NCBI GenBank assembly: GCA_038245905.1 | Contig: JBBRRY010000001.1 | Coordinates: 128,001-192,000 of the forward strand | From: Thermoanaerobaculia bacterium | Lineage (GTDB): Bacteria > Acidobacteriota > Thermoanaerobaculia > UBA5066 | Length of the DNA: 64,000 nucleotides | Direction: 5' to 3' | Part shown: positions 738 to 57,635 of the stretch, piece by piece | Position numbering within the stretch: the stretch's first letter is position 1 | Layout of the letters: every line of letters begins with the position of its first letter | Notes under the pieces: model-generated | Told to the model about the DNA's origin: nothing | Database searches by the model: none | The model's input: only the letters and a program-made list of their open reading frames with translations | Made by a program: the position numbers and the translations under genes

Positions 738-1745
738 TCAGGTTAGCAAAAGAACGCCCGCCTCGAGCCCGGCTGCCGAGAGCAGACCAGCGATGTCCGC
801 CGGGACGGGCGCCGTGAAGGTCATTTTCTCGCCCGTGGTCGGGTGCTTCAGCGTGAGTCGCCATGCGTGGAGCGCCTGCCGGGAGAAGGTCTTGCAGGCA
901 TCGGCGAGCGTGACGTCCTTGAGGCCCTTCCAGCGGGGCGATCCATAGACGGGATCGCCGACGACGGGCAGGTTCATCGCCTTCAGGTGCACCCGGATCT
1001 GGTGCGTGCGGCCCGTGACGAGCGTGCACTTCAGGAGCGTGAGGCCGGAACATGAGCCCGAAGATTCGGATAGAATTTCATAAAAAGTGGAAGAGTCGCG
1101 GCCCTCGCTCTTCGAGACCGCCATGCGTTTGCGGTCGGCGGGATCGCGGAGGATCTTGAAGTCGATGCGCCCCTTTCGGAGAGGCGCCTTGCCGTAAACC
1201 ACGGCCAGATATTCCTTTTCAAGGAGTCTTTCCTTCATTGCCCGCCCGAGCACCGCCATCGCCCGCTCAGTCTTCGCGATCACGAGGACGCCCGACGTGT
1301 CCTTGTCCAGCCGGTGAACGAGACCGGGTCGGTCGGCGGGGCCGGCCCAGTCCTTCGAGCGAAAGAGCAGGGCGTTGACGAGAGTGCCGTCCCAGTGGCC
1401 GGCCGCGGGATGCACGACGAGACCGGGGGGCTTGTTCAGAACGAGGATTTCGGAGTCTTCGAAAAGGACGGAGAGCGGGATGTCCTGCGGGACGATTGCG
1501 GTCTTTGGCGGACGCGGCGGCGGCAACTCGATCTCGATTTCGTCTCCGGTTTTCACCTTCTCGGAAGTCTTCCCTGGTCTTTTTCCCGCGATGGTCACGT
1601 TCCCGTTTTCGATCCACTCCTGGATTCTCGTTCGCGAGGCCTCGGGCAGGTCGTTCAGGTGGCGGAGGAGGACGCGGTCGACGCGCTCGCCGGCATCCCC
1701 CCGATCGGCGCGAAAGGCACGCCGAGGCCGGGGCGCGTCGCTCAC
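738..1745 (-). CDS. rluD: RluA/RluD-family 23S rRNA pseudouridine synthase
   Basis: S4-like N-terminus, NKPPGLVVHP, catalytic HRLDKDTSG, TGRTHQIRVH, QALHA. GTG start at 1745 overlaps the lgt stop. Confidence 0.9.
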   Translation of the reverse strand: MSDAPRPRRAFRADRGDAGERVDRVLLRHLNDLPEASRTRIQEWIENGNVTIAGKRPGKTSEKVKTGDEIEIELPPPRPPKTAIVPQDIPLSVLFEDSEILVLNKPPGLVVHPAAGHWDGTLVNALLFRSKDWAGPADRPGLVHRLDKDTSGVLVIAKTERAMAVLGRAMKERLLEKEYLAVVYGKAPLRKGRIDFKILRDPADRKRMAVSKSEGRDSSTFYEILSESSGSCSGLTLLKCTLVTGRTHQIRVHLKAMNLPVVGDPVYGSPRWKGLKDVTLADACKTFSRQALHAWRLTLKHPTTGEKMTFTAPVPADIAGLLSAAGLEAGVLLLT

Positions 1746-2533
1746 GCCGCTCGAACGGCGGCCGGCGCGGGCGCCGTCTTGCGGCGCAGGGCCCAGATCG
1801 CGGCCGCCGTGGCGGCGAGGCACAAGGCGATGAACTGCGAAGTCGACAGAGCACCGAAGACCGAACCGCGCGGATCGCCGCGGAAGATCTCGATCGTGAA
1901 ACGGAGGACCGCGTACCCGAAGAGGTAGCGCACGAACGTCTCCCCGGAGTATCGGCGGCGCTCGAACGCGAGGAGGAGGAGACAGAGGGCGAGAGTGCCG
2001 ACGGCCTCGTAGATCTGCGTGGGATGGAGCGGGACTCCGAGCGGGACGCCGACATTTTCGTTCGCCTTCGGGTCGGAGAAGGTGATCGCCCAGGGCAGGT
2101 CGCAGTGGCGGCCCCAGCAGCAGCCCGCGAGGAGGCAGCCCACGCGGCCCAGGGACTGCCCGAGCGCGATCGACGGCGCCGCGCTGTCGGCGAATGTGAA
2201 GAAGGGGATCCGACGCTTCCGAAGGAGGATCGCCGTGCCCACGACCGCGCCGATCAGGCCGCCGTAGAAGACGCCGCCTGCCCGTGCGAGATCCTTCAGG
2301 CCGTCCCAGGACGACACGTAGTGCGGCCACTCGACGATGACGAGCAGCAGTTTTGCGCCCACGAGACCCGACAGAAGAAGCCAGATTCCGACGTCCGACG
2401 CTGCGTCCAGCGCGATCCCGAACCCGGGCGCCCGCTTTCGGAGGAGCCACAGCGCGGCGAGGAAGGCGAGCGCCATCATCAGGCCGTAGCTCGGCAACGC
2501 GAACGAACCGATGTGGATCAGTTCTGGGTGCAT
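1742..2533 (-). CDS. lgt: Prolipoprotein diacylglyceryl transferase
   Basis: MHPELIHIG...YGLMMALAF, GGVFYGGLIG, GRVGCLLAGCCWG, HPTQIYE, RFTIEIFRGD; follows lspA. Confidence 0.93.
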   Translation of the reverse strand: MHPELIHIGSFALPSYGLMMALAFLAALWLLRKRAPGFGIALDAASDVGIWLLLSGLVGAKLLLVIVEWPHYVSSWDGLKDLARAGGVFYGGLIGAVVGTAILLRKRRIPFFTFADSAAPSIALGQSLGRVGCLLAGCCWGRHCDLPWAITFSDPKANENVGVPLGVPLHPTQIYEAVGTLALCLLLLAFERRRYSGETFVRYLFGYAVLRFTIEIFRGDPRGSVFGALSTSQFIALCLAATAAAIWALRRKTAPAPAAVRAA

Positions 2534-3018
2534 GTCTCGGGCTCTTTCCCCGGATGGCGCCAGATGTCCCAGGCGAGAAGGACGACGCCCACGCTGATGG
2601 CGCTGTCGGCTACGTTGAACGAGGGCCATTCCCAGCGACCCACGTAAAATCGCAGGAAGTCCGTCACCGACTGGAACCGGACCCGGTCGATCAGGTTTCC
2701 GACCGCTCCCCCGAGGACGAGCGCCAGAGCCGTCTGGAGCCGCGTGAGCGTCGCGGGCGAAGAGAGGGACCAGGCGAGAACGGAAAGAAACACGCCGCCG
2801 GCCACTAGCGTCAGGATCGTCGCCCGCGCGGGCGAGCTGAACGACGCAAAAATGCCGAACGCCGCGCCGGGGTTTCGCACGTGCGTCAGGTCGAAGAAGC
2901 CCCGAATCACGGGAATCGTGTCGTGAAGCGGGATGCGCGCCGACACGACCGCCTTCGTGATCTGGTCCAGAACCACGACGGCGATGGAAATTCCGAAATA
3001 GACGAGCCGGCGCGGCAC
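2518..3018 (-). CDS. lspA: Signal peptidase II
   Basis: DQITK, NPGAAFG, GAVGNLIDR, FNVADSAI motifs; downstream of ileS. Confidence 0.95.
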   Translation of the reverse strand: MPRRLVYFGISIAVVVLDQITKAVVSARIPLHDTIPVIRGFFDLTHVRNPGAAFGIFASFSSPARATILTLVAGGVFLSVLAWSLSSPATLTRLQTALALVLGGAVGNLIDRVRFQSVTDFLRFYVGRWEWPSFNVADSAISVGVVLLAWDIWRHPGKEPETCTQN

Positions 3019-3027
3019 GGGAGGATT

Positions 3028-5985
3028 CTACTCCCCGACGACGCGCCGGCAGCGCGCGCAGATTCCGTCGTCTCCGGGCTCGACGTCCTTCCGGACCTGC
3101 CAGCAGCGCGGGCACTTCAGGCCATCGGCGGGGCGGACCGCGAAGATCTCCGTCCCGCCCTCCCGCACGACCGATGGCGTTCCGAAGAGGTCCGCGAGTT
3201 TTTCTTCTGAAAGGGAAAGAATGGCGAGCGCCTCGTCGACCTCGCCGCCCCGGCCCACGACGGGCGTCGCCTGAGAGGCGGAGCCGACCTTTCCTTCCCG
3301 GCGAAGGGGTTCGAGCTGCGCGAGGAAGTTCGCTCGGAGCGCGAGCATCGTCCCCCAGGCCTTCCTCTCATTCACAGAAATCTCCGGTAGCCGGAGGTCG
3401 CTCCAGCTCTTCAGGAAGAGCGCGGACGAATCCCCCGCGTACCCTGGGACGGCCTCCCAGATCTCCTCGGCCGTGAACGGGCAGATCGGCGAGAGCGCAA
3501 GTGCGATCGTCTCGACGAGTTTCCAGGCGGCCGTCTGGGCGGAGCGCCGGACGGAATCGTTCGCCGCGAGGACGTAGAAGGCGTCCTTGCGGACGTCGCA
3601 CCAGAAGGCCGAGAGGTCGATCGTGACGAGGTCCAGGAGCCGGCGCGCGACCGCATGGAACTCGTAGCGCGCGTACGCGTCGCGCGCCTCGGCCGCGAAC
3701 CGGGCCGCGGCGTCGAGCACCCAGCGGTCGAGCGGCTCCATGCTCGCGGCCGGCACCGCATCCGTCGCCGGATCAAAATCGAAGAGGTTCGAGAGGAGGA
3801 AGCGCGCCGTGTTCCGGATCTTCCGGTAGGCCTCGGCGGTGCGCAGCAGGATCTCCTTCGAGAGCGGGTCGTCGCTCGTGTAGTCGAGCGAGGCGACCCA
3901 GAGGCGGATCACGTCCGCGCCGTCCGTCTTGAGGAGCTCCTGCGGCTCGATCGTATTGCCGAGAGACTTCGACATTTTTCGGCCGTCGCCCGCGACGACG
4001 AATCCATGGGTAAGAACGACGTCGTACGGCGCGCGGCCGGTCAGCGCGACGGACGTGAGGAGCGACGACTGGAACCACCCGCGGTGCTGGTCGTGCCCTT
4101 CGAGGTACATGACCGGCACCGGCGGCTGAGAAAGGTACGGATCGGCGAGGCCGTAGTCGCCCGAACGCAACACCGCGGCGTGCGAAACGCCGGAGTCGAA
4201 CCATACGTCGAGGATATCCTTGAGCTTCTCGAACGACGTTCCGCCGCAGCGCGAGCACGCTGGAGAAACAGAAGAGGAAGATTTGCTTAGGAAGTAAGAG
4301 GGAGGGAACGCATCGTCATACCAGGCATTCGCACCGTGCTCTCGGAAAGTACCTCTTACACCTTCAAAGAAATCTTCTCTTTCTTTCTTGTCTTTGTCGG
4401 GTATGTCGCCTACGACCCGCGGGAAGTGGCTGACGACGCCCTTCTCCTTGCAGTCGACGCACCGGAGAAACGTGATCGGCGACCCCCAGCGGCGCTGGCG
4501 GGAGATCGTCCACTCCAGACGGTTGTCCACCATGGCACCGATGCGGTTCTCGCTGTACGACGGGATCCACTCAACATGGCCGCGGATCTCCGACATCGCC
4601 GTCTCGCGGAGCGCCCCGAGGTCGATGAACCATTGATGCGTCGCCCGGAAGATGACCGGGTTCTTGCAGCGCCAGCAATGGGGATAGGAGTGAGGGGATT
4701 TCTTCGAGCTGAGAAGAAGAGCGCCAGACGCTTCTCCCTTCGTCAACTCTTCGAGAACTGCCGCATTCGCGTCGTCGGCAGGCGTCTTCGGTGTGACGAC
4801 GCGCTTTCCCCGAAACTGCTCGGGGGCGTTCGCGTCGAAGTACCCGCCCTCGTCGACCGGGCAGAGCGCCGGGTCGTCTACCTTCTTACCGGCCCGTTTG
4901 ACGACCTCGTAGTCGTCGCGGCCGTGGCCGGGCGCCGTGTGGACGAGGCCCGTGCCGTCCGACGTCGAGACGTGCTCGCCGAGGAGGAACCCGAAATTGT
5001 CGAATGGATCGGACGCGAACGGGCGGGCGTATCGCAATGCGGGCGTTGCCGCGGCAATCGATTCGCCGCTCTTTTTCGAAAGGGGAAGAGGGGTGGCGTC
5101 GCGCCATCCCAGCGCGGCCGTCACTTGCGGCACGAGCGCGTGGGCGACGAGGTAGGCGGCGCCCGGCTCGGATTCCCTTCTCAGAAGAACATATTCGATC
5201 TTCGGACCCAGCGCGATGGCCCTGTTGGCGGGCAACGTCCACGGCGTCGTCGTCCAGACGAGGGCGTAGACGCGCGGCGATCCGACGGCCTCCAGCGCGT
5301 CGCCCCACGTACCCCTCGAAGAAATCTCTTCCACAGGCATTCCGACGTAGATCGACCAGTCCGTCTTGTCTTCGTACTCGATCTCCGCCTCGGCGAGCGC
5401 CGTGCGGTCGTGGACGCACCAGAGGACGGCCTTGAAGCCGAACGAGACGAGGCCCTTCTCGACGAACCGGCCGAACGCCCGCGCGATCTCGGACTGGTAC
5501 GAGAAGTCCATCGTCTTGTACGGTGACTGCCAGGCCCCGAGGACGCCGAGGCGCATGAAGTCGGTCCGCTGGACGTCGATCCACTTCTCCGCGTACGCCC
5601 GGCAGGCGTCGCGGACCGCGACGTCGGTCATCGCGCGCTTCTTCGGGCCCAGCTCCTTGTCGACCTTGATCTCGATCGGCAGGCCGTGGCAGTCCCAGCC
5701 CGGCACATAGGGCGCGTCGAAGCCGGCGAGCGTTTTCGAGCGGACGACGAGATCCTTGAGGATTTTGTTCATCGCCGTCCCCATGTGAATCCGGCCGTTC
5801 GCGTAGGGCGGTCCGTCGTGCAGGAGAAACTGCGGGGCGCCCTTGCGGGCGGCGCGGATGCGGCCGTAGAGGTCCCCGTCCACCCAGCGCGCGAGTCGCG
5901 CGGGCTCCCGCTTCGGGAGGTCCGCTCTCATGGGGAACTCCGTCTGCGGGAGCAGGAGGGTGGATTTCCAGTCGCGTCCGCTCAT
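3028..5985 (-). CDS. ileS: Isoleucine--tRNA ligase
   Basis: [14 protein letters not shown] (HIGH variant), [37 protein letters not shown] and C-terminal CPRC/CARC zinc finger. ATG 5985 chosen; the ORF-track extension is antisense to the next gene. Confidence 0.97.
4271..4387. repeat. Convergent pair of the AT-rich motif inside ileS
   Basis: + GAAGAGGAAGATTTGCTTAGGAAGTAAGAG (4271-4300); - GAAAGAAAGAGAAGATTTCTTTGAAGGTGTAAGAG (4387-4353). Confidence 0.7.
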
Positions 5986-6081
5986 GTGAGCCGCGGAGGT
6001 TACGCGGTCGCCCCGCGCGCGGCAACCCGGCGAGGCACGCGCGGGTTGCTTCCGCGTGGCTTCCTTTACACTCCGGCCCGC

Positions 6082-7026
6082 ATGGTGAAGATCCGCACAG
6101 GCATCGTCGGCTGCGGCTATCTCGGCCGGCACCACGCGCGGATCCTGACCGAGCTCGAAGGTTCGGAGCCCGTCGGCTTCGTCGACGGAGACGACGCCAC
6201 GGCCCGGGCAATCGAAGCCGCGCACGGAGCAAAGGGTCTCGTGAGGAGAAGCTCCGTGAAGGAGCTTCTCGACGCGGGCGCTCGCGCGGTCGTCGTCGCG
6301 TCGCCGACCTCCACGCACGCGGAGGTGGCGGAGGAGCTTCTCGAAGGAGGCGCCGACGTGATGGTCGAAAAGCCCATCACCGTGACGCTCGCGGACGCCG
6401 ACCGGCTCGTCGCCCTCGCACGGGCCAAGGGGCGCGTCCTGCAAGTGGGCCACATCGAGCGTTTCAACCCCGCCGTCGTCGCCGTTCGCCCGCTCGTGAC
6501 CAACGTGAAGTTCATCGAGGCGCACCGGCTCGGGGTGTTCGTGCCGCGCGCTCTCGACGTGGACGTGGTCCTCGACCTCCTCGTGCACGACCTCGACATC
6601 GCGCTCGACCTCGTGGGCCGGCCCGTCACCGAAATTCGGGCAGTCGGCGTTCCGATCCTGAGCGAGAAGATCGACATTGCCTCCGTGCGTCTGTCGTTCG
6701 AAGGCGGCTGCGTCGCGAACCTGACGGCCTCGCGCGTCTCGCAGGAGAAGACCCGAAAGTTCCGGTTCTTCCAGCCCGACTGGTATTTCTCGATCGACAC
6801 GCAGAATCGCGACGTGACGGCCTTCCGTCTCGATCGGCTGAGCGGCCCGCCGCGCATCGTGCCGTGGCCCGTGGCGGTCGAGCCCGCGGACGCGCTCACC
6901 GCCGAGGATGCCGCGTTCCTGAAGGCCTGCGCCGAACGCAGCGAGCCCGAAGTCACGGGAGAAGCCGGCCGCGCGGCGCTGAAGCTCGCTCTCGACATCC
7001 TCGAGGAGATGGGGCGGGGGAGATGA
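6082..7026 (+). CDS. Gfo/Idh/MocA-family oxidoreductase
   Basis: GIVGCGYLG Rossmann fold, [20 protein letters not shown]. Confidence 0.9.
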
Positions 7027-7883
7027 CGAAAGAGATTCACCGCATCGGCCTCATCGGAGGATCGGGCCTGTATTCGCTGCCCGGTCTCGAGGTCACCCGC
7101 GAGATCAGGCTTCGGACTCCCTTCGGCTCCCCGTCCGACTCTTTCATTCTAGGAAATCTCTCTTCGGTCCCCGTGGCGTTCCTCGCCCGCCACGGCCGCC
7201 ATCACTTGCTCCTGCCGGGTGAGGTCAACTACCGCGCGAACATCTGGGGCTTCCGGAAGCTTGGCTGCTCGTGGCTGATCTCGGCTTCCGCCTGCGGCTC
7301 GATGAAGGAGGCGTACAAGCCGGCCGACATCGTCCTTCCGGACCAGTTCATCGACCTGACGAAGCACCGGGTCTCGACGTTTTTCGGCGGCGGCTGCGTG
7401 GGTCACGTCTCGTTCGCATACCCGGTCTCGACCGTCCTGCTCGATGCCCTCGCAGCGGCCGCAAAAGTTGAGGGCGCGGTATGTCACGGCGGCGGGACGT
7501 ACCTTTGCATCGAAGGACCCCAGTTTTCCACGAAGGCCGAGTCGTCGCTCTACCGCTCGTGGGGTGTCGACGTGATCGGCATGACGAACGCCACCGAAGC
7601 AAAGCTCTGCCGGGAGGCCGGAATCGGCTACGCCTCCATGGCCCTCGTCACCGACTATGACTGCTGGCACGAGGAGGAGGCCGCCGTCTCGGTGGAGGCC
7701 GTCCTCGCCGTCCTCAAGCAGAACGCGGGCACCGCGAACCGCGTCCTCGCGAACGCCGTGCGGCACCTCGATCCCGATCGGCCGAGCGACTGTGCGGATG
7801 CTCTCGCGTGGGCCGTCCTCACGGCGGAAGAACGCATTTTACCCGCCGCCGCGAGGCGCCTCGCGCTGTTCCTGAAGAAATGA
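7023..7883 (+). CDS. mtnP: S-methyl-5'-thioadenosine phosphorylase
   Basis: [47 protein letters not shown]. Confidence 0.93.
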
Positions 7884-7899
7884 AGAAGAAAGAGGTCAG

Positions 7900-8910: not shown

Positions 8911-8932
8911 GGCTGATACAATCTCCGGTCCC

Positions 8933-9430: not shown

Positions 9431-9452
9431 CGGCCGGGCGAAAGGGACGCGT

Positions 9453-10829: not shown

Positions 10830-13382
10830 ATGAGCAGCACGACGACGAAGAGCGACGAAATCCACCGGATCGAAGCCAAGTGGCGCGAGCGCTGGGAAGC
10901 GGATCGCGCCGCCTTCGTGGACACGGGAAAGCCCGCGGGCGAAGGAACGTACCTCCTCGTCATGCTCCCTTACCCGTCGGGCGACCGCCTGCACGTCGGG
11001 CACGCCCGGACGTACTTTCTGACCGACGCTCTCCACCGCTTTCTCAGGCAGACCGGCGTGACCGTGTTCTGTCCCATGGGCTGGGACGCCTTTGGCCTTC
11101 CCGCGGAGAACTACGCGATCCAGAAGGGGATTCATCCCCGCATCTCCACGCTTGCGAACATCGCGGCGATGAAGGAACAGTTCCGGGCGTGGGGAGTTCT
11201 CTACGACTGGACGAAGGAAGTCACGACCTGCGAGCCCGAGTACTACCGCTGGAACCAGTGGTTCTTCCTCAGGCTCCTCGAGAAGGGTCTCGCGGTCCGG
11301 AAGAAATCGGCGGTCAACTGGTGCCCCTCGTGCCTCACGGTTCTCGCGAACGAGCAGGCCGAGGGGGGCGTCTGCGAACGCTGCAAGACGCCGGTCGTCC
11401 AGCGCGAGCTGGAGCAGTGGTTCCTGAAGATCACCGACTACGCCGAGCGGCTCCTGGAAGGCCTCGACACGCTCGGCGCATGGCCCGAGAAAGTCGTCAC
11501 GATGCAGCGCAACTGGATCGGCAAGTCCACGGGCGCCGATCTCGACTTCGCGATTCCGTCGCTCGGGGAGACGGTGCGCGTCTTCACGACGCGTCCGGAC
11601 ACCGTGTTCGGCGCGACGGCGCTCATCCTTGCCCCCGAGCACGCGCTCGTGCCGCGCCTGCTCGACAAGCACCCGAAGCGCGCCGAGCTCCAGGCGTGGG
11701 TCAAGTCCGTACGCGACCAGGAGCGCATCGCTCGCGAGGCTGAGGGCGCCGAGAAGGACGGCCGGGACACGGGCGTCAAGGCGGTCAACCCGTTCACCGG
11801 GCAGGAGATTCCTGTATGGATCGCGAACTTCGTGATCGCGAGCTACGGCACAGGCGCCCTCATGGCTGTCCCGGCGCACGACACGCGCGACTTCGAGTTC
11901 GCGAAGAAGTACGACATTCCGATCGTGAAGGTCATCGAGGAGGAGAGGAAAGAAGAAGAGGAAGAAGATTTGCTTAGAAGGGAGGAGGGGGAGGGGCGCG
12001 CGCCGGGAGCGGAAAGCCTCGGCGGGTCGACTGCCTCCGCTTATACGGGCGAAGGCCGCCTCATCGCCTCCGGACCATTCTCAGCAAAATCTTCCTCTTC
12101 CGCTCGCGAGCTGATTGCGGCGGAAGCGGCTCGCCGAGGGATCGGCGGGCCGCGCGTGCGCTACCGGTTGCGCGACTGGCTCATTTCCCGCCAGCGCTAC
12201 TGGGGCACCCCGATCCCCATGATCCACTGCGAGAAGGACGGCTGGCTCCCCGTCCCCGAGAAGGACCTGCCCGTGGTCCTGCCCGCCGACGCGCCGTTCA
12301 CGGGCACGGGAGGCAACCCGCTGGAGAAAGTCGCCTCGTTCGTGAACACGACGTGCCCCCGATGCTCCGGCCCCGCGCGCCGCGAGACGGACACGATGGA
12401 CACCTTCGTGGACTCGTCCTGGTACTACCTGAGGTACCTCGACCCGAAAAACGCCCGGGCGCCGTTCGACCCCGCCATCGCGAAGGAGTGGGCGCCCGTC
12501 GACCAGTACATCGGCGGGATCGAGCACGCGATCCTGCATCTCCTGTACGCGCGCTTTTTCGCGCGCATCCTGAAGGACCTTGGCCTCGTGACGTTCGAGG
12601 AGCCGTTTTCCGCGCTCTTCAACCAGGGCATGATCACGCGCCAGTCCCCGACCGGGCGCGTCGAGAAGATGTCCAAGTCGCGCGGCAATGCGGTGTCGCT
12701 CGACCCGCTCATCGCCGAGAAGGGTGCCGACGCCGTCCGCGCGTTCATCCTCTTCCTCGGACCGCCGGAGAAGGACTCCGAGTGGAGCGACGAGGGGATC
12801 AGCGGCCCCGAGCGTTTCCTCTGGCGGGTGCGGGCCACAGTCGACCGGTTCCTTCAGGCAGGCTCCGATCCGAAGGGCCAGCCTGCGAAGGTCGACACGC
12901 CCGCGGCGCGCGCGCGCCATATGGCTGTGAAGAGGGTCACGGAGGACTTCCGGGCGTTTTCTTTCCACACGGCCGTGGCGCATCTCATGGAATTCCACAA
13001 CCATGCGACGAGTCTCGCCGGCGACGCCGACGCGGACGTGGGGGAGACCGCGACGACCCTCCGGACGCTCGTCACCCTGCTCCATCCCATTGCGCCTCAT
13101 CTGTCCGAGGAGCTTCACGAGCGGATGGGCGGCGCGAAGAGCCTCCTCTTGTCGGGCTGGCCGGCCTTCGATGCGGCGCTCGCGGTGGAGGAATTCGCGT
13201 CGATCGCCGTGCAGATTTCCGGGAAGGTCCGGGCGGAGATCAGGCTCCGACGAGGATCTTCTGAGAAGGAAGCCGTGACCGAGGCGGAATCGAACGGGAT
13301 CATCGTGAAGTGGCTCGACGGCAAGCAACGTGTGAAGACCATCTGGGTGCAGGACCGCCTGCTGAACATCGTGGTGAAGTGA
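10830..13382 (+). CDS. leuS: Leucine--tRNA ligase
   Basis: [49 protein letters not shown]. Confidence 0.97.
11941..12100. repeat. Convergent pair of the AT-rich motif inside leuS
   Basis: + GAAGAAGATTTGCTTAGAAGGGAGG (11961-11985); - GAAGAGGAAGATTTTGCTGAGAATGG (12100-12075). Confidence 0.7.
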
Positions 13383-32546: not shown

Positions 32547-32558
32547 AGTTACCCCGCG

Positions 32559-32765
32559 CTACGGGACGACCTGGGTCATCAGGTTGAACTGCTGGAAGCG
32601 AGATCGGGGCTCCTTGACTGCGTTCTGCAGGTCGGCTTCGACAAACAGCGGAACATAGCTAATGCGGGCACAAGCGGCCCGCCGCCGAGCCGCCCAGCGC
32701 CACTATTCACAGGACCTCCGCCGCTACTCGGGAACTCATGCTGTTGACTTCCCTCAGGGTTCGGC
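32559..32765 (-). pseudogene. Collapsed remnant of a second protease-lipoprotein module
   Basis: 32559-32660 encodes SYVPLFVEADLQNAVKEPRSRFQQFNLMTQVVP*, aligning with the lipoprotein C-terminus GYTQFQASGSVQNDVKDHRYRYQDFNFLTQIVP*. 32661-32765 is a diverged copy of about 33329-33432 (protease end plus lipoprotein start). Confidence 0.8.
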
Positions 32766-32769
32766 CGCG

Positions 32770-35172: not shown

Positions 35173-35180
35173 CTAAGAAC

Positions 35181-35217
35181 TCCTTGGGGGCTCAGAAGGG
35201 TTCCGCTCCCCCAAGGA
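35181..35217 (-). promoter_or_regulatory. 10-bp inverted repeat overlapping the protease RBS
   Basis: TCCTTGGGGG (35181-35190) and CCCCCAAGGA (35208-35217). On the minus-strand mRNA the 3' arm contains the SD. Confidence 0.45.
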
Positions 35218-35319
35218 ACAGGTATCCGCGACGGACACGGAAAGATGCGGGCGCTTCAACTCTCTCGGCATGCAGGTGCATCGTTGTTCGGCTGTGCCTT
35301 CGGTGTTGGGGTTGAGGCC

Positions 35320-36051
35320 GTGGAAGACGCCGCTCCAGCTGGCCTGACCGAAGACACCGGCGCGTTCTTGCTGAATGAGCTTCGGCGATACTCCCGGATG
35401 GCGCGCGTTCCACGGGAGTCGGAAGACGACGTCGTTGGGGCAGCCACACTGTGGATCGTGAGTCATCGTCAGGCCGGGCGAGCAGTCTCCAAGGGCTGGA
35501 TTCGCGTGGTCCTGTCAAAGTTTCTGGACGCACAAAGGAAATCGGCAGCGCGCGACGCCGTTCGTTTCATACGCATGCCCACGTTCGAGTCAGGGCGGTG
35601 CCGGCCGAGCAGAGCATCTTCTTCCCTGACCTACGACGAAATGACCCGAGCCCTCAGTACGGCGGATAAGGGGGGCGTTGAATCGCTTCTCGCTGGTCAC
35701 ACGTGGAGGGAGACCTTGAACTCGATGGGCGCGACCGCAGGCACCCACACACGATGCAGGGAGCGCCTGCGGCGCCGAATGGCAGAAGCATTGTCAGTGC
35801 TCGGCATCCGAAATGCCCTGGCTCTCGAAGGCGCTGAAACGGGCTATGTGGACAGCCGTCCGAAAGATCGAAACGCGTCCGCGATCGCCTCGGGAACGGT
35901 GCGTGGCTTGCCGGAGCCGTCGAGGAACAGGTGCTGCGTTTCGCCCTCGGCCGCCAGATGGCCGTCCGGCAGGACGACCTCGTATGCGAAAGAGCAGCCG
36001 CGGCTCTTCAGCGAGGTCATCCACGCCCGCACGACGACCGTGTCGCCGTAG
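35320..36051 (+). CDS. Divergent ECF sigma-factor-like protein (possibly degenerate)
   Basis: Region-2-like SEDDVVGAATLW...KGWIRVVLSKFLDAQRK and region-4-like ALSTADK...GHTWRE...MGATAGTHTRCRERLRRRM. The tail runs antisense into the thioesterase gene. Confidence 0.5.
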   Translation: MEDAAPAGLTEDTGAFLLNELRRYSRMARVPRESEDDVVGAATLWIVSHRQAGRAVSKGWIRVVLSKFLDAQRKSAARDAVRFIRMPTFESGRCRPSRASSSLTYDEMTRALSTADKGGVESLLAGHTWRETLNSMGATAGTHTRCRERLRRRMAEALSVLGIRNALALEGAETGYVDSRPKDRNASAIASGTVRGLPEPSRNRCCVSPSAARWPSGRTTSYAKEQPRLFSEVIHARTTTVSP

Positions 36052-36288: not shown

Positions 36289-37515
36289 ATGCCAATGAAC
36301 GCGCTCTTCCGGGGGGATGGCTGGGGATTGCAGGACGGGGGAGGACCGGGGAGAGAACCGCGGAGAGAACCGGGGATTTTCTTTGAGGGTGAAGAGGAGA
36401 ATTTCCGGGCGGAGAGGCCGGAGCAGGTGCCCAGCGTCCTCTCTGCGCTCGACGAGATCGCCGCAAGCGGGGATCCAGGCCTTCTCGCCGCTGGATTCAT
36501 CTCGTACGAAGCGGGAGTCTGGCTCGAAGGCTCGACCGCGCTCGTCAGAGAACATGCATTTCTTCCTTTCGCAGAATTCTCCATCTTCAAATCCCACCAT
36601 TCCACCGTCCGTCGCCCCGCACCGCCGCCCCATGCCGGTTTCCCGCTCTTCACAATCAGAGAATCCGCGAGCGCGGAGCGCTCGCTCTCTCCGGACAATT
36701 GGACCCGCGGCGTCGCCGCGATTCGCGACGGGATCGCCCGGGGCGACGTCTATCAAGTGAACCTCTCGAGCCGCTCCCGCTTTCCGGGAGGTGTAGATCC
36801 CTCCTCCCTCGCGCGTGCTCTCTATGACGACAACCCCGTGCCGTTCGCCGTGACGCTCGCGGGCGACGACTGGTCCGTGGTGTCGAACTCGCCGGAGCTC
36901 TTTCTCGACGTCGACCTCGCGGCGCGACGCGTCGTCACGAAGCCGATCAAGGGCACGATCGCGCGCGCACCGGACGAAGAAGGGGACGCACGGCGCCGCG
37001 CGGCGCTCCTCGCCTCGGCGAAGGACGCCGCGGAGAACGTGATGATCGTGGACCTCCTGAGGAATGACCTGGGGAAGGTCGCGGAACCGGGACGCGTCGA
37101 AACGACAGCGCTCCGGGTGCTCCGATCGTTCCGCCATCTGCACCATCTGGAGTCCGCCGTGCAAGCCCGACTCCGCCCCGGCACGGGGCTCGCCGACGTC
37201 CTCCGCGCGACGCTGCCCGGCGGCTCGATCACGGGCGCGCCGAAGCGCGCGGCTCTCCGCTTCATCCATGACCTCGAGCCCGTCGCGCGCGGCGCCTATT
37301 GCGGCGCGGCAGGGTTCGTGCGCGGCGACGGCCGGGCCGTCTTCAACGTGGCGATCCGCACGGCGCTCGTCGGGCGGGATACAGTCGACTACCACGCCGG
37401 GAGCGGAATCGTGTGGGACTCCCGGCCGGGCGCCGAGTGGCGTGAAATGGAATCGAAGTCGCGGGAATTCGGCGCGGCGATGGTCGCGCTCGTCGCACGG
37501 GCCGGAGGAAGGTGA
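36289..37515 (+). CDS. pabB: Aminodeoxychorismate synthase component I (chorismate-binding family)
   Basis: GDVYQVNL, SNSPELFL, KPIKGT, KDAAENVMIVDLLRNDL, PGGSITGAPK, FNVAIRT. Confidence 0.82.
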   Translation: MPMNALFRGDGWGLQDGGGPGREPRREPGIFFEGEEENFRAERPEQVPSVLSALDEIAASGDPGLLAAGFISYEAGVWLEGSTALVREHAFLPFAEFSIFKSHHSTVRRPAPPPHAGFPLFTIRESASAERSLSPDNWTRGVAAIRDGIARGDVYQVNLSSRSRFPGGVDPSSLARALYDDNPVPFAVTLAGDDWSVVSNSPELFLDVDLAARRVVTKPIKGTIARAPDEEGDARRRAALLASAKDAAENVMIVDLLRNDLGKVAEPGRVETTALRVLRSFRHLHHLESAVQARLRPGTGLADVLRATLPGGSITGAPKRAALRFIHDLEPVARGAYCGAAGFVRGDGRAVFNVAIRTALVGRDTVDYHAGSGIVWDSRPGAEWREMESKSREFGAAMVALVARAGGR

Positions 37516-48791: not shown

Positions 48792-49193
48792 GACTCGGGC
48801 CGGACAGGCGGTCGCCGCTCTCGACGCTTCGGCGGAAGGAGGGGAGGAAAGTCCGGACTCCCGCGGGCAGCGTGCCGGAGAAATTCCGGTCGGGGTAACC
48901 CGAAGGAAAGTGGCACAGAGAACATACCGCCGACGCGCCGCAAGGCGCAGGTAAGGGTGAAAAGGTGCGGTAAGAGCGCACCGCGGTTCCGGCAACGGGA
49001 CTGGCAGGCGAAACCCCACGCGGAGCAAGGCCAAATAGGGTGATGGAAGGGGCGCCCGCCCTCGCGGCTTCGGCCGACGTCACCGGGTAGGTCGCTCGAG
49101 CCCGTCCGAAAGGCCGGGCCTGGAGGAATGACCGCCGGCCGGAAGGCGCGAGCCGACCGGTTACAGAATCCGGCTTATCGTCCGGCCCGAGTC
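48792..49193 (+). ncRNA. rnpB: RNase P RNA, class A
   Basis: P1 helix GACTCGGGCCGGAC / GTCCGGCCCGAGTC; GAGGAAAGTCCGGACT, GGTGCGGTAAGAGCGCACC, GAGCAAGGCCAAATAG, ACAGAATCCGGCTTA. Confidence 0.97.
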
Positions 49194-49224
49194 ATTTTTC
49201 CTCTCAAGCTGCGAGAATTCCCCC

Positions 49225-49662: not shown

Positions 49663-49721
49663 CCGCGCGCGGCTGCACCTGATACTCTTTCGCGGTCAAT
49701 TCAATCGGGAAAGGAGCATCC

Positions 49722-50777: not shown

Positions 50778-50790
50778 CACAATCGCCGCG

Positions 50791-52293: not shown

Positions 52294-52306
52294 GGGGCCC
52301 GTCCCG

Positions 52307-54412
52307 CTGCTCCCTTCTCTTCCATCGCTTGCCAGCCTGCCCGGCATCGGCCCCGCGCGGGCGAAGGAGCTGGCCGAAGCCGGGGTCGAGACGGCGCTCG
52401 ATCTCCTCCTTCACCTCCCGTTCCGCTACGAGGACCGCACCCGGATCGGGCGCATCGCCGATCTCGTTCCCGAGGGCCCCGCCACGACGGTAAAGGGCGA
52501 GGTTCTCTCCGCGAAACTCATCCGCACCCGTCGCCGCGGCTTCACGATCTTCGAGGCGATCCTCGACGACGGCTCGGGTCCTCTCAGAATCATCTTCTTC
52601 AACCAGCCCTACCTTCAGCGGTGGATGCTGCCGAAGAAGGTCTTCTGGGTTTACGGGGCTCCGACGCAGGCGGCGCGCTATCGGCGCGGGCTCGTCATGG
52701 AGAACCCGCAGATAGAAGAGTTCCTAGAAGGTGAAGAGGGGCGGGACCCCCTCAGCGTCGGCCGGGTCGTTCCCATTTACCGCAAGCTGCCGGGCCTGAC
52801 GCCCCGTGCACGCCGCACGGTCGTCTTCCACCTTATAAGAGACTTTGCAGACCACCTCCCCGAGCGTATGCCTCCGTCGAAGCGGGAGGGTCCGAAGCTG
52901 CCCGCTCTTTCCGAATCCCTCCAAGAAGCCCACTTCCCGGGCAGCAGCGGCGGGCCCGCCGACGCCTCGCCCTGGACCGAACGCACCTCGCCCTACCTCC
53001 ACCGCCTCGTGTACGAGGAGTTCCTCGAGTTCCAGGTAGGCCTTCAGCGGCGGCGCCGGGCGCGTGCGGCCGACCCGGCGCCCGTGCTCGCCGCGGACGA
53101 CGCCATTCGCGCGCGGCTCAAGGCGCTCCTCCCGTTCGCGCTCACCGGGGCGCAGAAGCGGGTGATCCGGGAGATCGGCGAGGACTTCCGGCGCGGCAGG
53201 CCGATGCGGCGGCTTCTCCAGGGCGACGTCGGGAGCGGCAAGACGATCGTCGCGGTGCTCTCGGCCGTGCTCGCCGCCGCGTGCGGGTACCAGACCGCGC
53301 TCATGGCACCAACCGAAATCCTCGCCGAGCAGCACGCGGCGACGATCTTCCGCCTGCTCGCGCAGTCGGGGCTCGTGCCCGCGCTCCTCACGGGTCGCGT
53401 CAAGGGAAAGGCCCGCGTCGCGCTTCTGGACCAGCTCGCGGGCGGGCGCGTCAACCTCCTCATCGGGACACACGCGCTCCTGGAAGATCCCGTGGCGTTT
53501 CTGCGGCTCGGACTCGTCGTCATCGACGAGCAGCATCGGTTCGGGGTGGCCCAGCGCACGGCGCTCGCGGCGAAAGCCGTCACGTCAGGCCGAAAGCCGC
53601 ACCTCCTCGTGATGTCCGCGACGCCGATCCCGCGCTCCCTGGCGCTCACGCTGTACGGCGATCTCGACGTGTCGACGCTCGACGAGAAGCCGCCCGGGCG
53701 GACTCCGGTGGCGACGCGCATTCTCCCGGAGTCCGAGCGTGGCGTCGTGTTCCGTGAGATCGAGGCCGAGATCCGGGCCGGGGGCCAGGCCTACGTCGTC
53801 GTTCCCCTCATCGAGGAGTCGGACAAGATCGAGGCGCGCGCGGTCGAAAAGCACGTCGAGGAGATCCGCCGGGCGCTGCGAGGGAGACGCGTCGGGGTCG
53901 TGCATGGCCGCATCCCGCCCGACGAGCGCGAACGAACGATGGGGGAGTTCGCGGCCGGCCGGCTCGATGTCCTCGCGGCGACCACCGTGATCGAGGTCGG
54001 CGTCGACGTGCCGAACGCCTCCTACATGCTGATCGAGAACGCCGAACGCTTCGGTCTCGCCCAGCTCCACCAGCTGCGCGGCCGCGTCGGGCGGGGACGA
54101 CGCGCCTCGCGCTGCGTGCTGCTGTTCGGCCCGGGGATCTCGCCGGAGTCGCGCGAGCGGCTCGCCGTTCTCGAGAGGACGGACGACGGATTCGTCGTGG
54201 CCGAAGAGGACCTGAAGCGCCGCGGCCCAGGCGACGCGCTCGGGACCCGCCAGAGCGGTATCCCGCTTTTCCGGGTCGGCGACCTGATCCGGGACCTGAA
54301 GTGGATGAAACTGGCGCGCGACGAAGCGAGTCGAATGCTCGCGGACGGCACGGACGCGCCGTTCCGCAACGCGCTCTTTCTCCGGGCGGCCGACCTGCCG
54401 GCAGGCGACTGA
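52307..54412 (+). CDS. recG: ATP-dependent DNA helicase RecG
   Basis: In-frame N-terminus LPGIGPARA...HLPFRYEDR upstream of the ORF-track ATG; QGDVGSGKT, DEQH, SATPIPR, QLRGRVGR. Start uncertain (CTG 52307 proposed). Confidence 0.93.
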   Translation: MLPSLPSLASLPGIGPARAKELAEAGVETALDLLLHLPFRYEDRTRIGRIADLVPEGPATTVKGEVLSAKLIRTRRRGFTIFEAILDDGSGPLRIIFFNQPYLQRWMLPKKVFWVYGAPTQAARYRRGLVMENPQIEEFLEGEEGRDPLSVGRVVPIYRKLPGLTPRARRTVVFHLIRDFADHLPERMPPSKREGPKLPALSESLQEAHFPGSSGGPADASPWTERTSPYLHRLVYEEFLEFQVGLQRRRRARAADPAPVLAADDAIRARLKALLPFALTGAQKRVIREIGEDFRRGRPMRRLLQGDVGSGKTIVAVLSAVLAAACGYQTALMAPTEILAEQHAATIFRLLAQSGLVPALLTGRVKGKARVALLDQLAGGRVNLLIGTHALLEDPVAFLRLGLVVIDEQHRFGVAQRTALAAKAVTSGRKPHLLVMSATPIPRSLALTLYGDLDVSTLDEKPPGRTPVATRILPESERGVVFREIEAEIRAGGQAYVVVPLIEESDKIEARAVEKHVEEIRRALRGRRVGVVHGRIPPDERERTMGEFAAGRLDVLAATTVIEVGVDVPNASYMLIENAERFGLAQLHQLRGRVGRGRRASRCVLLFGPGISPESRERLAVLERTDDGFVVAEEDLKRRGPGDALGTRQSGIPLFRVGDLIRDLKWMKLARDEASRMLADGTDAPFRNALFLRAADLPAGD
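52715..52846. repeat. Convergent pair of the AT-rich motif inside recG
   Basis: + GAAGAGTTCCTAGAAGGTGAAGAG (52715-52738); - AAAGTCTCTTATAAGGTGGAAGA (52846-52824). Confidence 0.65.
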
Positions 54413-54452
54413 TGCCCCTCTCGTTCCGGGTTAACATCTCGGGCCGCGCGGT

Positions 54453-55115: not shown

Positions 55116-56110
55116 TGTCTTCCTCTTCGAGGCAAATCGTTCTTTCCGGCCTGCGTCCCACGGGTCGCGTCCACCTCGGCAACTACTGGGGCGCCGTCAA
55201 GAACTGGGTCGACCTCCAGGAGACCTACGACTGCCGCTACTTCGTCGCCGATCTGCACGCGCTCACGACCGACTACGCCGACGCCTCCCAGATTCGGCAG
55301 GCCTCGCTGGATGCCGCGACGGACTGGCTGTCGGTCGGCCTCGATCCGGAGAAATCCGTCATCTTCGTGCAGTCGCGCGTCCCGCAGACGGCGGAGCTGG
55401 CGCTCGTCTTCGGGATGATCACGCCCCTCGGCTGGCTCGAGCGCGTGCCGACTTACAAGGAGCAGATCGAGCAGCTCCGGGAGCGCGACCTCGGGACTTT
55501 CGGGTTTCTCGGATATCCAGTTCTCATGACCGCCGATATCGCGCTCTATCGCGCGCACTTCGTGCCTGTCGGCAAGGACCAGGAGAGCCATCTCGAGATC
55601 TGCCGCGAGATCGTCCGGCGCTTCAACGGCTTCTACGGCGACGTCTTCCCCGAGCCGCGGGCGCTCTTCACCCAGACCCCGAAGGTGCCGGGCCTCGACG
55701 GCCGGAAGATGTCGAAGAGCTACGGAAACACGATCGCCCTCTCCGACCCGGCGGCCGACGTCGAGAAGAAGGTCATGGGCATGGTCACGGACCCGGGCCG
55801 CGCGCGCCGGTCCGACCCGGGGAATCCCGACGTCTGCAATCTCTATCCGTTCCACATCCTCTACTCGCCGCCCGAAGAGCAGAAGCAGGTGGATCTCGAG
55901 TGCCGTACGGCGGCGCGCGGCTGCGTGGACTGCAAGAAGCACCTCATCCGCAACATGAATGCCGCGTTGGAGCCGATCCGCCAGAAGCGCGCCGAGATCC
56001 TGGCGAAACCGGGCTATGTGAGGGACGTGCTCGAAACGGGAAACGAAAGAGCGAGAAATATTGCTTCGGAAACGATGGAGACAGTCTCCGACGCAATGGG
56101 GTTGCTGTGA
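55115..56110 (+). CDS. trpS: Tryptophan--tRNA ligase
   Basis: SGLRPTGRVHLGN, YPVLMTADI, VPVGKDQ, KMSKS. Confidence 0.96.
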   Translation: MSSSSRQIVLSGLRPTGRVHLGNYWGAVKNWVDLQETYDCRYFVADLHALTTDYADASQIRQASLDAATDWLSVGLDPEKSVIFVQSRVPQTAELALVFGMITPLGWLERVPTYKEQIEQLRERDLGTFGFLGYPVLMTADIALYRAHFVPVGKDQESHLEICREIVRRFNGFYGDVFPEPRALFTQTPKVPGLDGRKMSKSYGNTIALSDPAADVEKKVMGMVTDPGRARRSDPGNPDVCNLYPFHILYSPPEEQKQVDLECRTAARGCVDCKKHLIRNMNAALEPIRQKRAEILAKPGYVRDVLETGNERARNIASETMETVSDAMGLL

Positions 56111-56120
56111 GAGCCGTCGT

Positions 56121-56143
56121 TCTTCACCTTCTAAGAAATCTTC
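56121..56143 (-). repeat. Best-consensus motif copy between trpS and scpA
   Basis: Minus strand GAAGATTTCTTAGAAGGTGAAGA. Confidence 0.65.
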
Positions 56144-56155
56144 GGTCGTTCTTCC

Positions 56156-56968
56156 ATGGCTGAAGGCATTCGCATCCCAGTCCCCGCCGGCGCGGACCTC
56201 ATGCAGCCCTACCCGGTGAAGCTGCCGATGTTCGAGGGGCCGCTCGATCTCCTCCTCCATCTCATCCGCAAGAACGAGGTGGACCTCCGAAACCTCCCGG
56301 TGGCCGATATCTGCCGGCAGTACCACGAGTACATCGTCCTCATGGTCGAGCTCGACCTCGAGGTCGCGGCCGAGTTCCTGTACGTCGAAGCGATGCTTCT
56401 CCACATCAAGTCGCAGCTCGTGCTCCCACGGGCGGCCGCCGTGGAGGGCGAGCCCCTCGAGGATCCGCGCGACGAGCTCGTGAGGCGTCTCCTCGAGTAC
56501 CGCAAGTACAAAGGCGTCGCCGAGTCGCTGCACGAGATGGAGGCCGTCCGCCTTGGCCTCTGGAGCCGGCCGCCGACGAGGGTCGAGGTAGGGGGAGGGG
56601 AAGCCGAGGAGACCGACCTCTCAGAGGTCTCCCTTTTCGATCTCCTGGCCTTCTTCAAGGGTGCCGTCGACCGATACCGCGCCCAGCATCCGCCATCGAT
56701 GGAGATCGCCCACCAGAAGTTCTCCATCAAGGAGAAGATGGAGCAGATGCTCGCGCGCATCAAGGCCGGGACCGGCAACGTACCGCTTTCGGAAGTGTTC
56801 CGCGGCCTCTCGGGACGCGGCGAGGCGATTGCCATCTTCCTCGCCGTCCTCGAGCTCCTGAGGCTCCGCGTCGTCCGCGCGCGCCAGGACGGCGAATTCA
56901 ACGAGATTTATCTGGACCCGACGGGTGAGTCGGCATCGCTCGAGGGCTACGAGGAGGCCTACCGGTGA
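56156..56968 (+). CDS. scpA: Segregation/condensation protein A
   Basis: FEGPLDLLLHLI, DPRDELVRRLLEY, FLAVLEL. Confidence 0.93.
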   Translation: MAEGIRIPVPAGADLMQPYPVKLPMFEGPLDLLLHLIRKNEVDLRNLPVADICRQYHEYIVLMVELDLEVAAEFLYVEAMLLHIKSQLVLPRAAAVEGEPLEDPRDELVRRLLEYRKYKGVAESLHEMEAVRLGLWSRPPTRVEVGGGEAEETDLSEVSLFDLLAFFKGAVDRYRAQHPPSMEIAHQKFSIKEKMEQMLARIKAGTGNVPLSEVFRGLSGRGEAIAIFLAVLELLRLRVVRARQDGEFNEIYLDPTGESASLEGYEEAYR

Positions 56969-57585
56969 CCACGCATGTGGCGCTCCTCGAGGCCCTCCTC
57001 TTCGCGTCCGGGAAGTCCGCGACCGTCGAGCGTCTCGCCGAGGCCGCGGAAATCACGAAGGAAGAGGTCGAAGCCGCCCTCGACGCGCTCGAGAGCGCCT
57101 GCGAGGCCGAAGGGCGGGGCGTACGCGTGGACCGCGTCGCCGGTGGCGCGCGCCTCGTGTCGCGCAACGAGTACGACCTGCCCGTCCGAAGCCTCCTCGG
57201 GCTCGAGGGCAAGAACAAGCTCTCGATCCCGAGCCTCGAGGTGCTGTCGATCGTGGCGTACCGGCAGCCGGTCACGGCGCCCGAGATCGCGGAGCTTCGC
57301 GGCGTGAGCTCGGCGTCCTCGCTGCGCACCCTCCTCGACAAGAAGCTCATCACGACGGCCGGCCGCAAGGAAGTCGTCGGGACCCCGTTCCTGTACAAGA
57401 CGACGAAAGAGTTCCTCGTGCACTTCGGCCTGGCCGACCTGAAGGACCTCCCGCGCCCGGAGGACCTCGACGCGCTTTATGGGGTCGAGACGAATACGGC
57501 GCAGACCGAGCTGTTTCCGGAGCAGAATTCTGCTGAAGAAGAGAAGGAAACAGGAATAGATAGAGAGAAAGAGGAAGATTCTTAG
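56965..57585 (+). CDS. scpB: SMC-Scp complex subunit ScpB
   Basis: LEALLFAS, LEVLSIVAYRQPVT, RGVSS, YKTTKEFLVHFGL. Confidence 0.95.
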   Translation: MTTHVALLEALLFASGKSATVERLAEAAEITKEEVEAALDALESACEAEGRGVRVDRVAGGARLVSRNEYDLPVRSLLGLEGKNKLSIPSLEVLSIVAYRQPVTAPEIAELRGVSSASSLRTLLDKKLITTAGRKEVVGTPFLYKTTKEFLVHFGLADLKDLPRPEDLDALYGVETNTAQTELFPEQNSAEEEKETGIDREKEEDS

Positions 57586-57635
57586 AATGGTTAATTCCCT
57601 TCCCTCTTCTAAGCAAATCTTTCTTTCTCTTTTCC
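57561..57635. repeat. Convergent pair of the AT-rich motif at the scpB end and scpB-rluB spacer
   Basis: + GAGAAAGAGGAAGATTCTTAGAATGG (57565-57590); - GAAAGAAAGATTTGCTTAGAAGAGGG (57627-57602). Confidence 0.7.

Follow-up and report, generated by a model that had tools for sequence, protein, structure and literature searches.

Introduction

Several kinds of short genomic words have been described that invite comparison with the element treated here. Rickettsia palindromic elements (RPEs) are short repeats that persist in frame inside conserved protein genes and add odd surface peptides to their products; RPEs and MITEs (miniature transposable elements with inverted repeats) alike are whole 100-150-bp units with a family-wide interior, inserted as one piece. 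The cyanobacterial HIP1 as well as Chi, KOPS and matS are 8-13-nt words that act singly, tolerate coding sequence and are kept genome-wide, and the DNA uptake sequences (DUS) and uptake signal sequences (USS) occur at a density of roughly one per kb. The element described here is a motif of ~23-30 nt (an arm) that recurs as facing pairs (doublets, a + copy followed by a - copy) in a 64,000-nt stretch of a Thermoanaerobaculia genome, positions 128,001 to 192,000 of contig JBBRRY010000001.1 in assembly GCA_038245905.1. This stretch is called the window (C1:128001-192000) and the assembly G000 (3.80 Mb, 113 contigs, 67.8% GC, 96.4% complete); counts refer to G000 unless stated otherwise. The motif belongs to organisms of one Thermoanaerobaculia genus (Acidobacteriota) from soil and sediment, as yet uncultured. 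Its behaviour is that of a recognition signal at the level of DNA, of a type without earlier description, and our literature searches found no account of the motif, nor of repeats in Thermoanaerobaculia.

Like RPEs, the motif has copies in frame inside conserved genes, but only the arms are shared: no whole ~100-150-bp element with a family consensus was found, the interiors being host sequence, and many arms, unlike RPEs and MITEs, arise without insertion. Terminal inverted repeats, as in MITEs, are present (85 of 111 neighbouring pairs), whereas a shared interior and a defined length are lacking (78 interiors; spacing 37-313 nt), and there is no excess in G000 of +- pairs at 0.8-6.4 kb that would point to a related autonomous element. 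As to target sites, there are some clean absences and insertions; the outer ends are fuzzy purine tracts at which no duplication can be defined. A conventional MITE does not fit the unique and partly ancestral interiors, the continuous spacing and the lack of pairs of insertion sequence (IS) size. An earlier reading of the window from its letters alone (the sequence-only reading) had likewise argued against an inserted MITE. Compared with HIP1, Chi, KOPS and matS, the arm is a 23-nt word in a dyad-symmetric pair, with neither skew polarity nor regional clustering in G000. Invertons would not be expected to show the observed bias of +- over -+.

The arms differ from DUS and USS in their length and information (23 nt, 35 bits), in being about ten times sparser than the density given above (0.073 arms per kb), and in forming obligate convergent ~110-nt doublets in genes, where a single DUS or USS copy is sufficient. 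What they have in common is a lineage-specific word found on both strands, placed at permissive sites of core genes, conserved, and rare in atypical DNA; DUS have been explained by mutation-selection balance or by molecular drive, and close inverted pairs of them exist, according to the DUS study (PMC2397512). The likeness to REPINs, the doublets formed by REP (repetitive extragenic palindromic) sequences, lies in short conserved arms, inverted doublets ~70-110 bp apart, strong over-representation, long vertical inheritance and a spacer less conserved than the arms, as the REPIN study describes them (PMC3116915). The differences are as numerous. Here 60% of arms lie in genes (169 of 277 in called genes) rather than being extragenic, the interior is unique host sequence, the spacing is broad and not discrete, the doublets are inverted yet show no compensatory changes, and the arm is no palindrome beyond TTCTnAGAA. 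A search for RAYT (Y1 transposase, PF01797) gave no match in G000 and was positive in 6 of 14 control genomes; neither a TnpB/Cas12f-type domain nor Cas1 was found in G000. Membership in the REPIN family was rejected on the missing RAYT, the unique interiors, the continuous spacing and the fuzzy outer ends.

A signal at the level of DNA

In each arm, the core GAAGATTTCTTAGAAGGTGAAGA is preceded on its 5' side by ~10-15 nt of loose purine tract and followed on its 3' side by GGG; the flanks beyond carry no information. The core, with 35.4 bits in 23 nt against genome composition, is flanked on both sides by GAAGA, the palindromy of the arm is limited to TTCTnAGAA, and tandem copies sit 0-20 nt apart. 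Allowing up to 5 edits, the genome has 190 matches to the 23-mer GAAGATTTCTTAGAAGGTGAAGA, of which 3 are perfect, 12 differ by one edit and 29 by two. The consensus of the sequence-only reading was correct: its 18-mer matches the window 3 times at up to 3 mismatches, where 100 shuffles averaged 0.02. A genome-wide nhmmer search with a profile built from 90 seed copies yielded 379 copies at E<=10, of which 277 have E<=1, as opposed to 28 and 2 in the main control, the reversed but not complemented genome. Two more iterations of the profile brought no growth of the family (255, then 227 matches at E<=1). At 0.073 arms per kb (E<=1) the density in the window equals the genome average, so that the window is not special in this respect.

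Within called coding sequences (CDS) there are 149 matches at E<=1 and 219 at E<=10. Five synonymous-codon shuffles, which keep each protein and the codon usage of each gene, gave 5-11 and 14-20, respectively, and three codon-order shuffles gave 0 and 0-1; the enrichment in genes over synonymous shuffles, the codon-preserving control that the sequence-only reading had asked for, is 15-25-fold. Strands are balanced (196 + and 183 - at E<=10) and all reading frames are used. The frame in which TGA would be read is depleted, with 4 copies; where TAG would be in frame, the motif has TTTGAA or is longer by one base, and GGGGA stands in for GGTGA where TGA would fall. Since the motif occurs in both orientations and all frames, takes stop-avoiding variants and exceeds the synonymous shuffles so strongly, the signal belongs to the DNA and does not merely follow from what the proteins require.

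The exact 23-mer is present in 101 stretches of a species-level genome collection. Among the 80 of these that were listed, 79 are metagenome-assembled genomes (MAGs) of Acidobacteriota or Thermoanaerobaculia from many projects, multi-megabase contigs included; the last, from an A/T-rich SAR86 genome, matches by chance. The motif therefore cannot stem from an assembly artefact. The length of the repeat suffices to interrupt assembly graphs of short reads. In the probable source run, contig pieces stop at arms (window 4354-4383 and 12098), and a few contig joints link an IleS arm to a LeuS arm, that is, arms of different genes, as expected of a repeat. No trustworthy inversion or excision joint at arms was seen in the assembled contigs of four sequencing runs.

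Doublets and their interiors

Among the 111 pairs of neighbouring arms (up to 400 nt apart, E<=10 set), 85 are +-, 11 ++, 9 -- and 6 -+, so that the order + then -, first noticed in the window, holds genome-wide. For 50 of 138 seemingly single arms, a reverse-complement match of at least 8 bits lies 10-260 nt downstream, whereas control searches gave 2 for a reverse complement upstream and, for a direct match, 3 downstream and 5 upstream. A facing partner is recognisable for roughly two thirds of strong arms, and the doublet is therefore the unit; there are roughly 150-200 doublets per genome. Larger clusters run ++--, +-- or ++-. Measured between centres, the arms of 78 doublets are 37-313 nt apart (median 109 nt, interquartile range 81-151 nt).

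The interiors are ~60-130 nt of ordinary local DNA with a GC content of 69.8%, like that of the host. When the 78 interiors were compared with one another, only two kinase paralogues matched (E=2e-14), the other 23 listed matches being 12-21 nt long with E values of 7e-4 to 9e-3. Interiors in IleS and LeuS align to solved structures. The interiors are thus unique local DNA and, in several genes (IleS, LeuS, RecG and the kinases), demonstrably ancestral coding sequence, which agrees with the earlier description of the DNA between partners as normal and conserved. No covariation between partner arms was found: the alignment score was 7.11 for partners and 6.57 for non-partners (permutation p=0.13; core p=0.94). 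Arms thus conform to the consensus individually and do not track their partners.

Arms of the window

The arms of the window are as follows.

1550..1578, - strand: weak arm in the RluD-family gene (nhmmer E=3.7, 10.9 bits)
4262..4299, + strand: IleS doublet, arm antisense to ileS, encoding ..FLSKSSSS.. (7.5 bits)
4353..4387, - strand: IleS doublet, arm sense to ileS (nhmmer E=0.01)
5311..5332, - strand: weak arm in ileS (5.9 bits)
7141..7172, - strand: arm inside mtnP (nhmmer E=4.9)
11945..11986, + strand: LeuS doublet, purine tract and arm (nhmmer E=0.75)
12075..12100, - strand: LeuS doublet, second arm (3.8 bits), kept across the genus
36361..36397, + strand: arm in the N-terminal part of pabB (nhmmer E=0.0013), also in G016, G004 and G011
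52708..52741, + strand: RecG doublet, ..IEEFLEGEEG.. (nhmmer E=0.0063)
52824..52846, - strand: RecG doublet, decayed arm (4.2 bits), well kept in G016, G014 and G001
55118..55145, - strand: weak arm at the 5' side of trpS (3.9 bits)
56118..56151, - strand: the window's best arm, located in the spacer between trpS and scpA and identical to the 23-mer (nhmmer E=2.6e-5, 0 edits)
57555..57587, + strand: scpB-rluB intergenic doublet (4.9 bits), inverted repeat
57602..57639, - strand: scpB-rluB intergenic doublet (8.9 bits)

Matches to NCBIfam or PDB bear out the gene names given earlier (RluD-like, IleS, MTAP, LeuS, PabB, RecG, TrpS and ScpB), and the odd peptides at arms were found as quoted. The A/T-rich codons said to be unusual are indeed rare in the genome, per 1000: ATA 0.55, CTA 0.94 and AGA 2.24, with TTA at 0.27. 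The list of copies in the sequence-only reading fared unevenly. Only 7 of its 25 copies reach E<=10 genome-wide (1550-, 4358-, 7147-, 11961+, 36361+, 52708+ and 56118-). The 15 copies called clear are all motif-like, scoring 3.8-26.5 bits on the strand given, where 0.7% of 3000 random 60-nt pieces reach 4 bits; several that are weak in G000 (4277+, 12075-, 52824-, 55118- and 57602-) are better kept in relatives. The 10 copies called weaker found little support, with 2 reaching 4 bits (4695 and 13255) and 3 giving no match at all (1446, 3200 and 56055).

The same sites were followed in five relatives from the genus over ~50 kb of synteny at a DNA identity of 77-88%. At the RluD-family arm and at the ileS arm 5311..5332, orthologous sites are of equal length, and the motif is of variable quality at the former and ranges from motif-like to unlike at the latter. 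The + arm of the IleS doublet is kept in all 5 relatives, and at the position of the - arm the outgroup has a look-alike FFE site. A + arm stands in the spacer upstream of mtnP in all 5 relatives and is missing from G000, which we read, from this comparison, as loss of the partner of the 7141..7172 arm. The + arm of LeuS is present in all 10 LeuS genes of the genus that were read in frame. The + arm of recG has a look-alike site in the outgroup and one or two tandem copies in relatives; the trpS arm is better in G004 (E=0.1) and G011 (E=1.2), and the trpS-scpA spacer arm is present in 4 relatives. In the scpB-rluB doublet, the TAG of the + arm is the scpB stop codon (open reading frame 56965-57585). 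The same arms in G011, G001 and G014 enclose ~50 nt of GC-rich DNA missing in G000, and G016 is without one of the two arms.

Origin of arms

Series of orthologues across genus g12, the sister genus (g10) and the motif-bearing genus (g1) show that arms can originate in place. Both IleS arm sites are ordinary sequence in g12 and in the g10 genome G074, intermediate in three further g10 genomes (G048, G032 and G123) and motif in g1; there is no length change along this series, and the two arms ripen in parallel. The - arm of LeuS passes at constant length from GPFTGLPSE through GPFTGMSSS to the motif peptide. The region of the RecG - arm measures 387 nt in 8 genomes of three genera, and the arm has therefore replaced a sequence of the AARLLDELG type (giving VFHLLRNFA) without changing its length. 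In a Ser/Thr-kinase family, the arm positions flank a conserved RFxREA...LNHP segment, again at constant length among paralogues. G000 has at least 10 such paralogues, several of them on C24 (~11-45 kb) and others at C11:59590, C25:29420 and C35:12330; they share LPEEFFEGEE...YSFEEIP, and the DNA at their arm sites ranges from a GC-rich look-alike to the exact 23-mer.

The arms were also compared with 800 kb of a motif-free outgroup genome, in which the profile has 0 matches. Already 5 of 18 orthologous outgroup segments are unusually motif-like, where ~1 is expected. Of the 20 arms in blocks alignable to the outgroup, 10 lie in net insertions of 4-14 residues, 7 show a change of -1 to +2 and 3 lie in net deletions; a further 7 arms fall outside alignable blocks. 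One clean insertion of 13 residues (39 nt) is exactly purine tract, core and GGG. The + arm of LeuS is part of a 72-nt insertion absent from three of four sister-genus genomes, and the LeuS loop carries one to three arms depending on species. In the fourth sister-genus genome, G048, the 72-nt insertion contains a + arm as in g1, the three other g10 genomes having a short loop; this would follow from an early origin of the arm with three later losses, or from exchange of the segment between the genera. Arms, then, form in two ways: look-alike sites acquire the motif by substitution without being displaced, and short insertions add it while preserving the reading frame. The claim that the motif was written over genes is consequently right for the several arms that ripened at constant length and does not extend to the roughly half of alignable arms that lie in net insertions.

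Distribution and conservation

The motif is restricted to one genus and its sister, as seen in a survey of 151 genomes of the order with a 20-mer pattern at up to 2 mismatches, for which the backwards control pattern gave 0-2 matches per strand.

Genus g1: 28 of 28 genomes with a match, 32-185 near-exact copies per genome
Sister genus g10: 7 of 8 genomes, 1-13 copies
Other genera of family f1: 1 of 26 genomes, 1 copy
Family f2: 1 of 81 genomes, 2 copies
Family f3: 0 of 7 genomes, 0 copies

The genomes free of the motif include the unpublished G019 and G024, on which nothing else in this account is based. An exact 20-mer in family f2 (G147:C545:190-209) sits on a small contig in a genus otherwise free of the motif and is possibly a binning contaminant from the motif-bearing genus.

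In 194 orthologous comparisons, the motif was present in 131, absent at the same length in 37 and absent with a length difference in 26. Third-codon identity across 6 genomes is 0.74 in arms and 0.63 in flanks (p=0.002), and overall arm identity is 0.85, compared with 0.88 at first and second codon positions of conserved flanks. In these alignments, orthologous arms are kept better than flanking synonymous sites.

Genomic context

Of the 277 arms, 80 lie in genes in sense orientation, 89 in genes in antisense orientation and 108 between called genes. Because genes were called with a home-made finder (2556 genes covering 82% of the genome), these shares are approximate: ~60% of arms (169) are within called genes, and the 18% of the genome without a called gene, holding 108 arms, is enriched 2-3-fold. 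Arms show no preference for a class of spacer (57 lie in tandem, 19 in convergent and 15 in divergent spacers, these classes making up 0.61, 0.19 and 0.20 of the background), nor is there a link to gene ends or starts, 17 of 277 arms overlapping a gene end and 16 of 277 having a gene start within 20 nt. A deficit of arms is seen in 4-kb windows of low GC content, with 10 matches in 55 windows (~4.5 per 100 kb) against a typical 11-13 per 100 kb. In the 64,000-nt window, positions 32547-35862 have a GC content of 60-63% (as against ~68%), no listed match in five genus relatives and syntenic flanks; this segment, probably a recently acquired island, holds no motif copy.

The strand of arms in G000 is unrelated to gene strand or to local GC skew (Fisher p 0.28-1.0), a test of replication polarity that has little power because skew is weak in this genome; regional clustering of arms across contigs was not seen in G000 either. 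With no strand link to the weak skew and a dyad-symmetric doublet, polarity like that of KOPS or Chi was rejected for G000. The suggestion of a selected DNA site akin to matS, KOPS or uptake words thus holds as far as the DNA level goes, and is not supported for the likeness to KOPS. The near-complete relative G011 has 29 well-kept arms on the forward strand and 75 on the reverse strand, or 29 and 62 once two tandem paralogue clusters are removed; these two tandem gene clusters, ~2.6 kb apart, account for 13 reverse copies. Reverse-strand dominance extends over ~3 Mb of G011:C1 (~0.34-3.43 Mb) with a switch near 3.44 Mb. In view of this imbalance, the finding of no polarity is limited to G000.

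Discussion

We tentatively favour the view, quite possible though by no means assured, that the doublets are paired binding sites of a putative DNA-binding factor of two-fold symmetry, kept by selection or by drive. Each arm would be read singly, on duplex DNA, by this sequence-specific factor, the simplest candidate being a dimeric protein or a symmetric complex that would span ~110-150 bp, and the fixed facing orientation of the arms would mirror its symmetry. Doublets would accumulate and be kept where the sequence tolerates them, namely in spacers and variable protein loops, and new ones would come about through substitutions at look-alike sites and through short in-frame insertions or duplications. 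Each extra doublet might be favoured either by selection for a position-independent function of the chromosome or by drive.

A number of observations weigh against this view. A rigid looping dimer would be expected to impose helical phasing, and there is none in the spacing of the 78 doublets (R=0.06 at 10.5 nt, threshold 0.20). Net insertions (10 of 20 arms) and local multiplication of arms hint at a copying process; the ~6-fold range of copy number within the genus (32-185) looks more like the dynamics of repeats than like fixed functional sites. The excess conservation (0.74 against 0.63) is modest, and in G000 arms decay or are deleted, as shown by the recG - arm, the + arm upstream of mtnP and the lost scpB-rluB interior. 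The factor, its symmetry and the part of selection as opposed to drive are what we infer from the pattern.

If paired binding sites are indeed what the doublets represent, a force acting on DNA would be pushing very rare codons (TTA, 0.27 per 1000) and altered residues into the essential enzymes IleS, LeuS and RecG throughout the genus, a clean natural case of a genome signal set against protein coding. The obligate facing-pair form together with the unique interiors fits none of the repeat and signal classes compared, and the motif may therefore indicate that these abundant Acidobacteriota, which are uncultured, have a hitherto unknown machine that recognises DNA, or a new specificity of uptake. 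It should be long and specific enough for affinity capture, and it might serve as a practical marker in binning the genus and in detecting DNA foreign to its genomes.

An unlikely but serious alternative is that the arms would be a preferred substrate of DNA uptake, spread by transformation bias and recombination (molecular drive), with the doublet form reflecting the preference of a receptor. It would account for a word bound to one genus and used equally on both strands, for arms in permissive parts of core genes that are nevertheless conserved, for their origin in place at look-alike sites and for the depletion of low-GC windows. According to PMC2397512, DUS share the permissive sites, the high conservation, the absence from recently acquired genes and the close inverted pairs, but these pairs are at most 21 nt apart and act as terminators, and a single DUS suffices, whereas ~110-nt doublets are the rule inside genes here. 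G000 has a gene of the ComEC family; so have 10 of 14 control genomes, hence this carries little information. One arm per ~10-14 kb is a low density for such a signal, and a core of 23 nt and 35 bits goes far beyond what uptake would need.

We are similarly doubtful that the doublets are a selfish short repeat of the REPIN, MITE or RPE type, copied by a putative enzyme that would recognise the arms as ends and surviving in genes by in-frame read-through. Inverted doublets with a median spacing of 109 nt are typical of such elements; for REPIN doublets, PMC3116915 reports peaks at 71 and 110 bp, a share of 93% inverted, and compensatory arm changes as a common feature, which the doublets here lack. 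The 2-3-fold intergenic enrichment without preference for a spacer class, the ~6-fold variation in copy number within the genus against low numbers in the sister genus, the clean 39-nt insertion beside other net insertions relative to the outgroup, and the extra copies in the same loops of some species would all follow from copying. However, the interiors are unique and often ancestral host sequence, and the doublet therefore cannot be the copied unit. At look-alike sites, arms also come about with the length unaltered; the outer end has no sharp terminus and fades into a fuzzy tract of purines, and the 96%-complete G000 has no Y1/RAYT transposase, TnpB-type gene or Cas1 and no IS-sized +- pairs. 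Moreover, 60% of arms are in genes, while only 14 of 1067 REP 16-mers overlap genes in the data of that study (PMC3116915).

Templated rewriting or biased gene conversion is an improbable source of the arms. It would overwrite or insert an arm at partly similar sites, be it by ectopic conversion among ~300 copies, by microhomology-mediated template switching at purine tracts or from a dedicated template, and would homogenise the copies although these served no function in the cell. Patches of ~21-23 nt are exchanged at constant length in alignable genes, preferably at look-alike sites, the likeness of copies is to the consensus and not to their partner, distances between tandem copies are 0-20 nt, and GAAGA on both sides of the core together with the purine tracts could supply microhomology. 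Yet orthologous sites are graded and change stepwise across genera and species instead of being all-or-none, and strict convergent pairing at ~110 nt would be left without a reason. It is tempting to speculate, as a highly improbable but instructive variant, about natural sequence-writing, in which an enzyme would nick the strands ~110 nt apart and extend each 3' end on the same short template. The same ~23-40-nt word would in that highly improbable case be installed on both strands, which would explain the facing arms, the untouched host interior, the match to a master sequence and the overwriting of partly similar coding sites.

Hardly credible, and rejected as a structure under selection, is an RNA hairpin in which the arms would pair in the transcript and act in mRNA processing, stability or translation: the dyad symmetry would give the same RNA with a 5' purine arm and a 3' pyrimidine arm from either strand, and the arms are ~73% or more complementary, but partner arms do not covary, G.U-compatible mismatches number 118 in sense and 116 in antisense RNA (p=0.95), the loops are 60-130 nt of translated sequence, the window has no Rfam match besides RNase P, and a pairing function needs no single genome-wide consensus. 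The weights that we give to these readings leave a remainder for something else.

Minor observations

The + arm contains a Shine-Dalgarno-like AGAAGGTGA. The 3' end of 16S rRNA in the genus, taken from four relatives as the 16S rRNA gene is absent from the G000 assembly, reads ...GGATCACCTCCTTTCTAAGGGATC, and the - arm with ..CACCTTCTAAGAAATC.. resembles it minus four bases. These likenesses may be due to chance, and we judged them too weak to build on.

A scan of the window against Rfam, a check that the sequence-only reading had proposed, returned at gathering score RNase P RNA alone (48796-49193, + strand), of bacterial class A with 264 bits. The open frame of ileS (3028-6588, - strand) has 1186 codons, with similarity to solved IleS structures from residue 206; the match of the RluD-like frame (738-2450) begins at residue 250 and that of trpS at residue 186. 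Since high GC content keeps frames open, the true starts of these three genes probably lie downstream of the open-frame starts.

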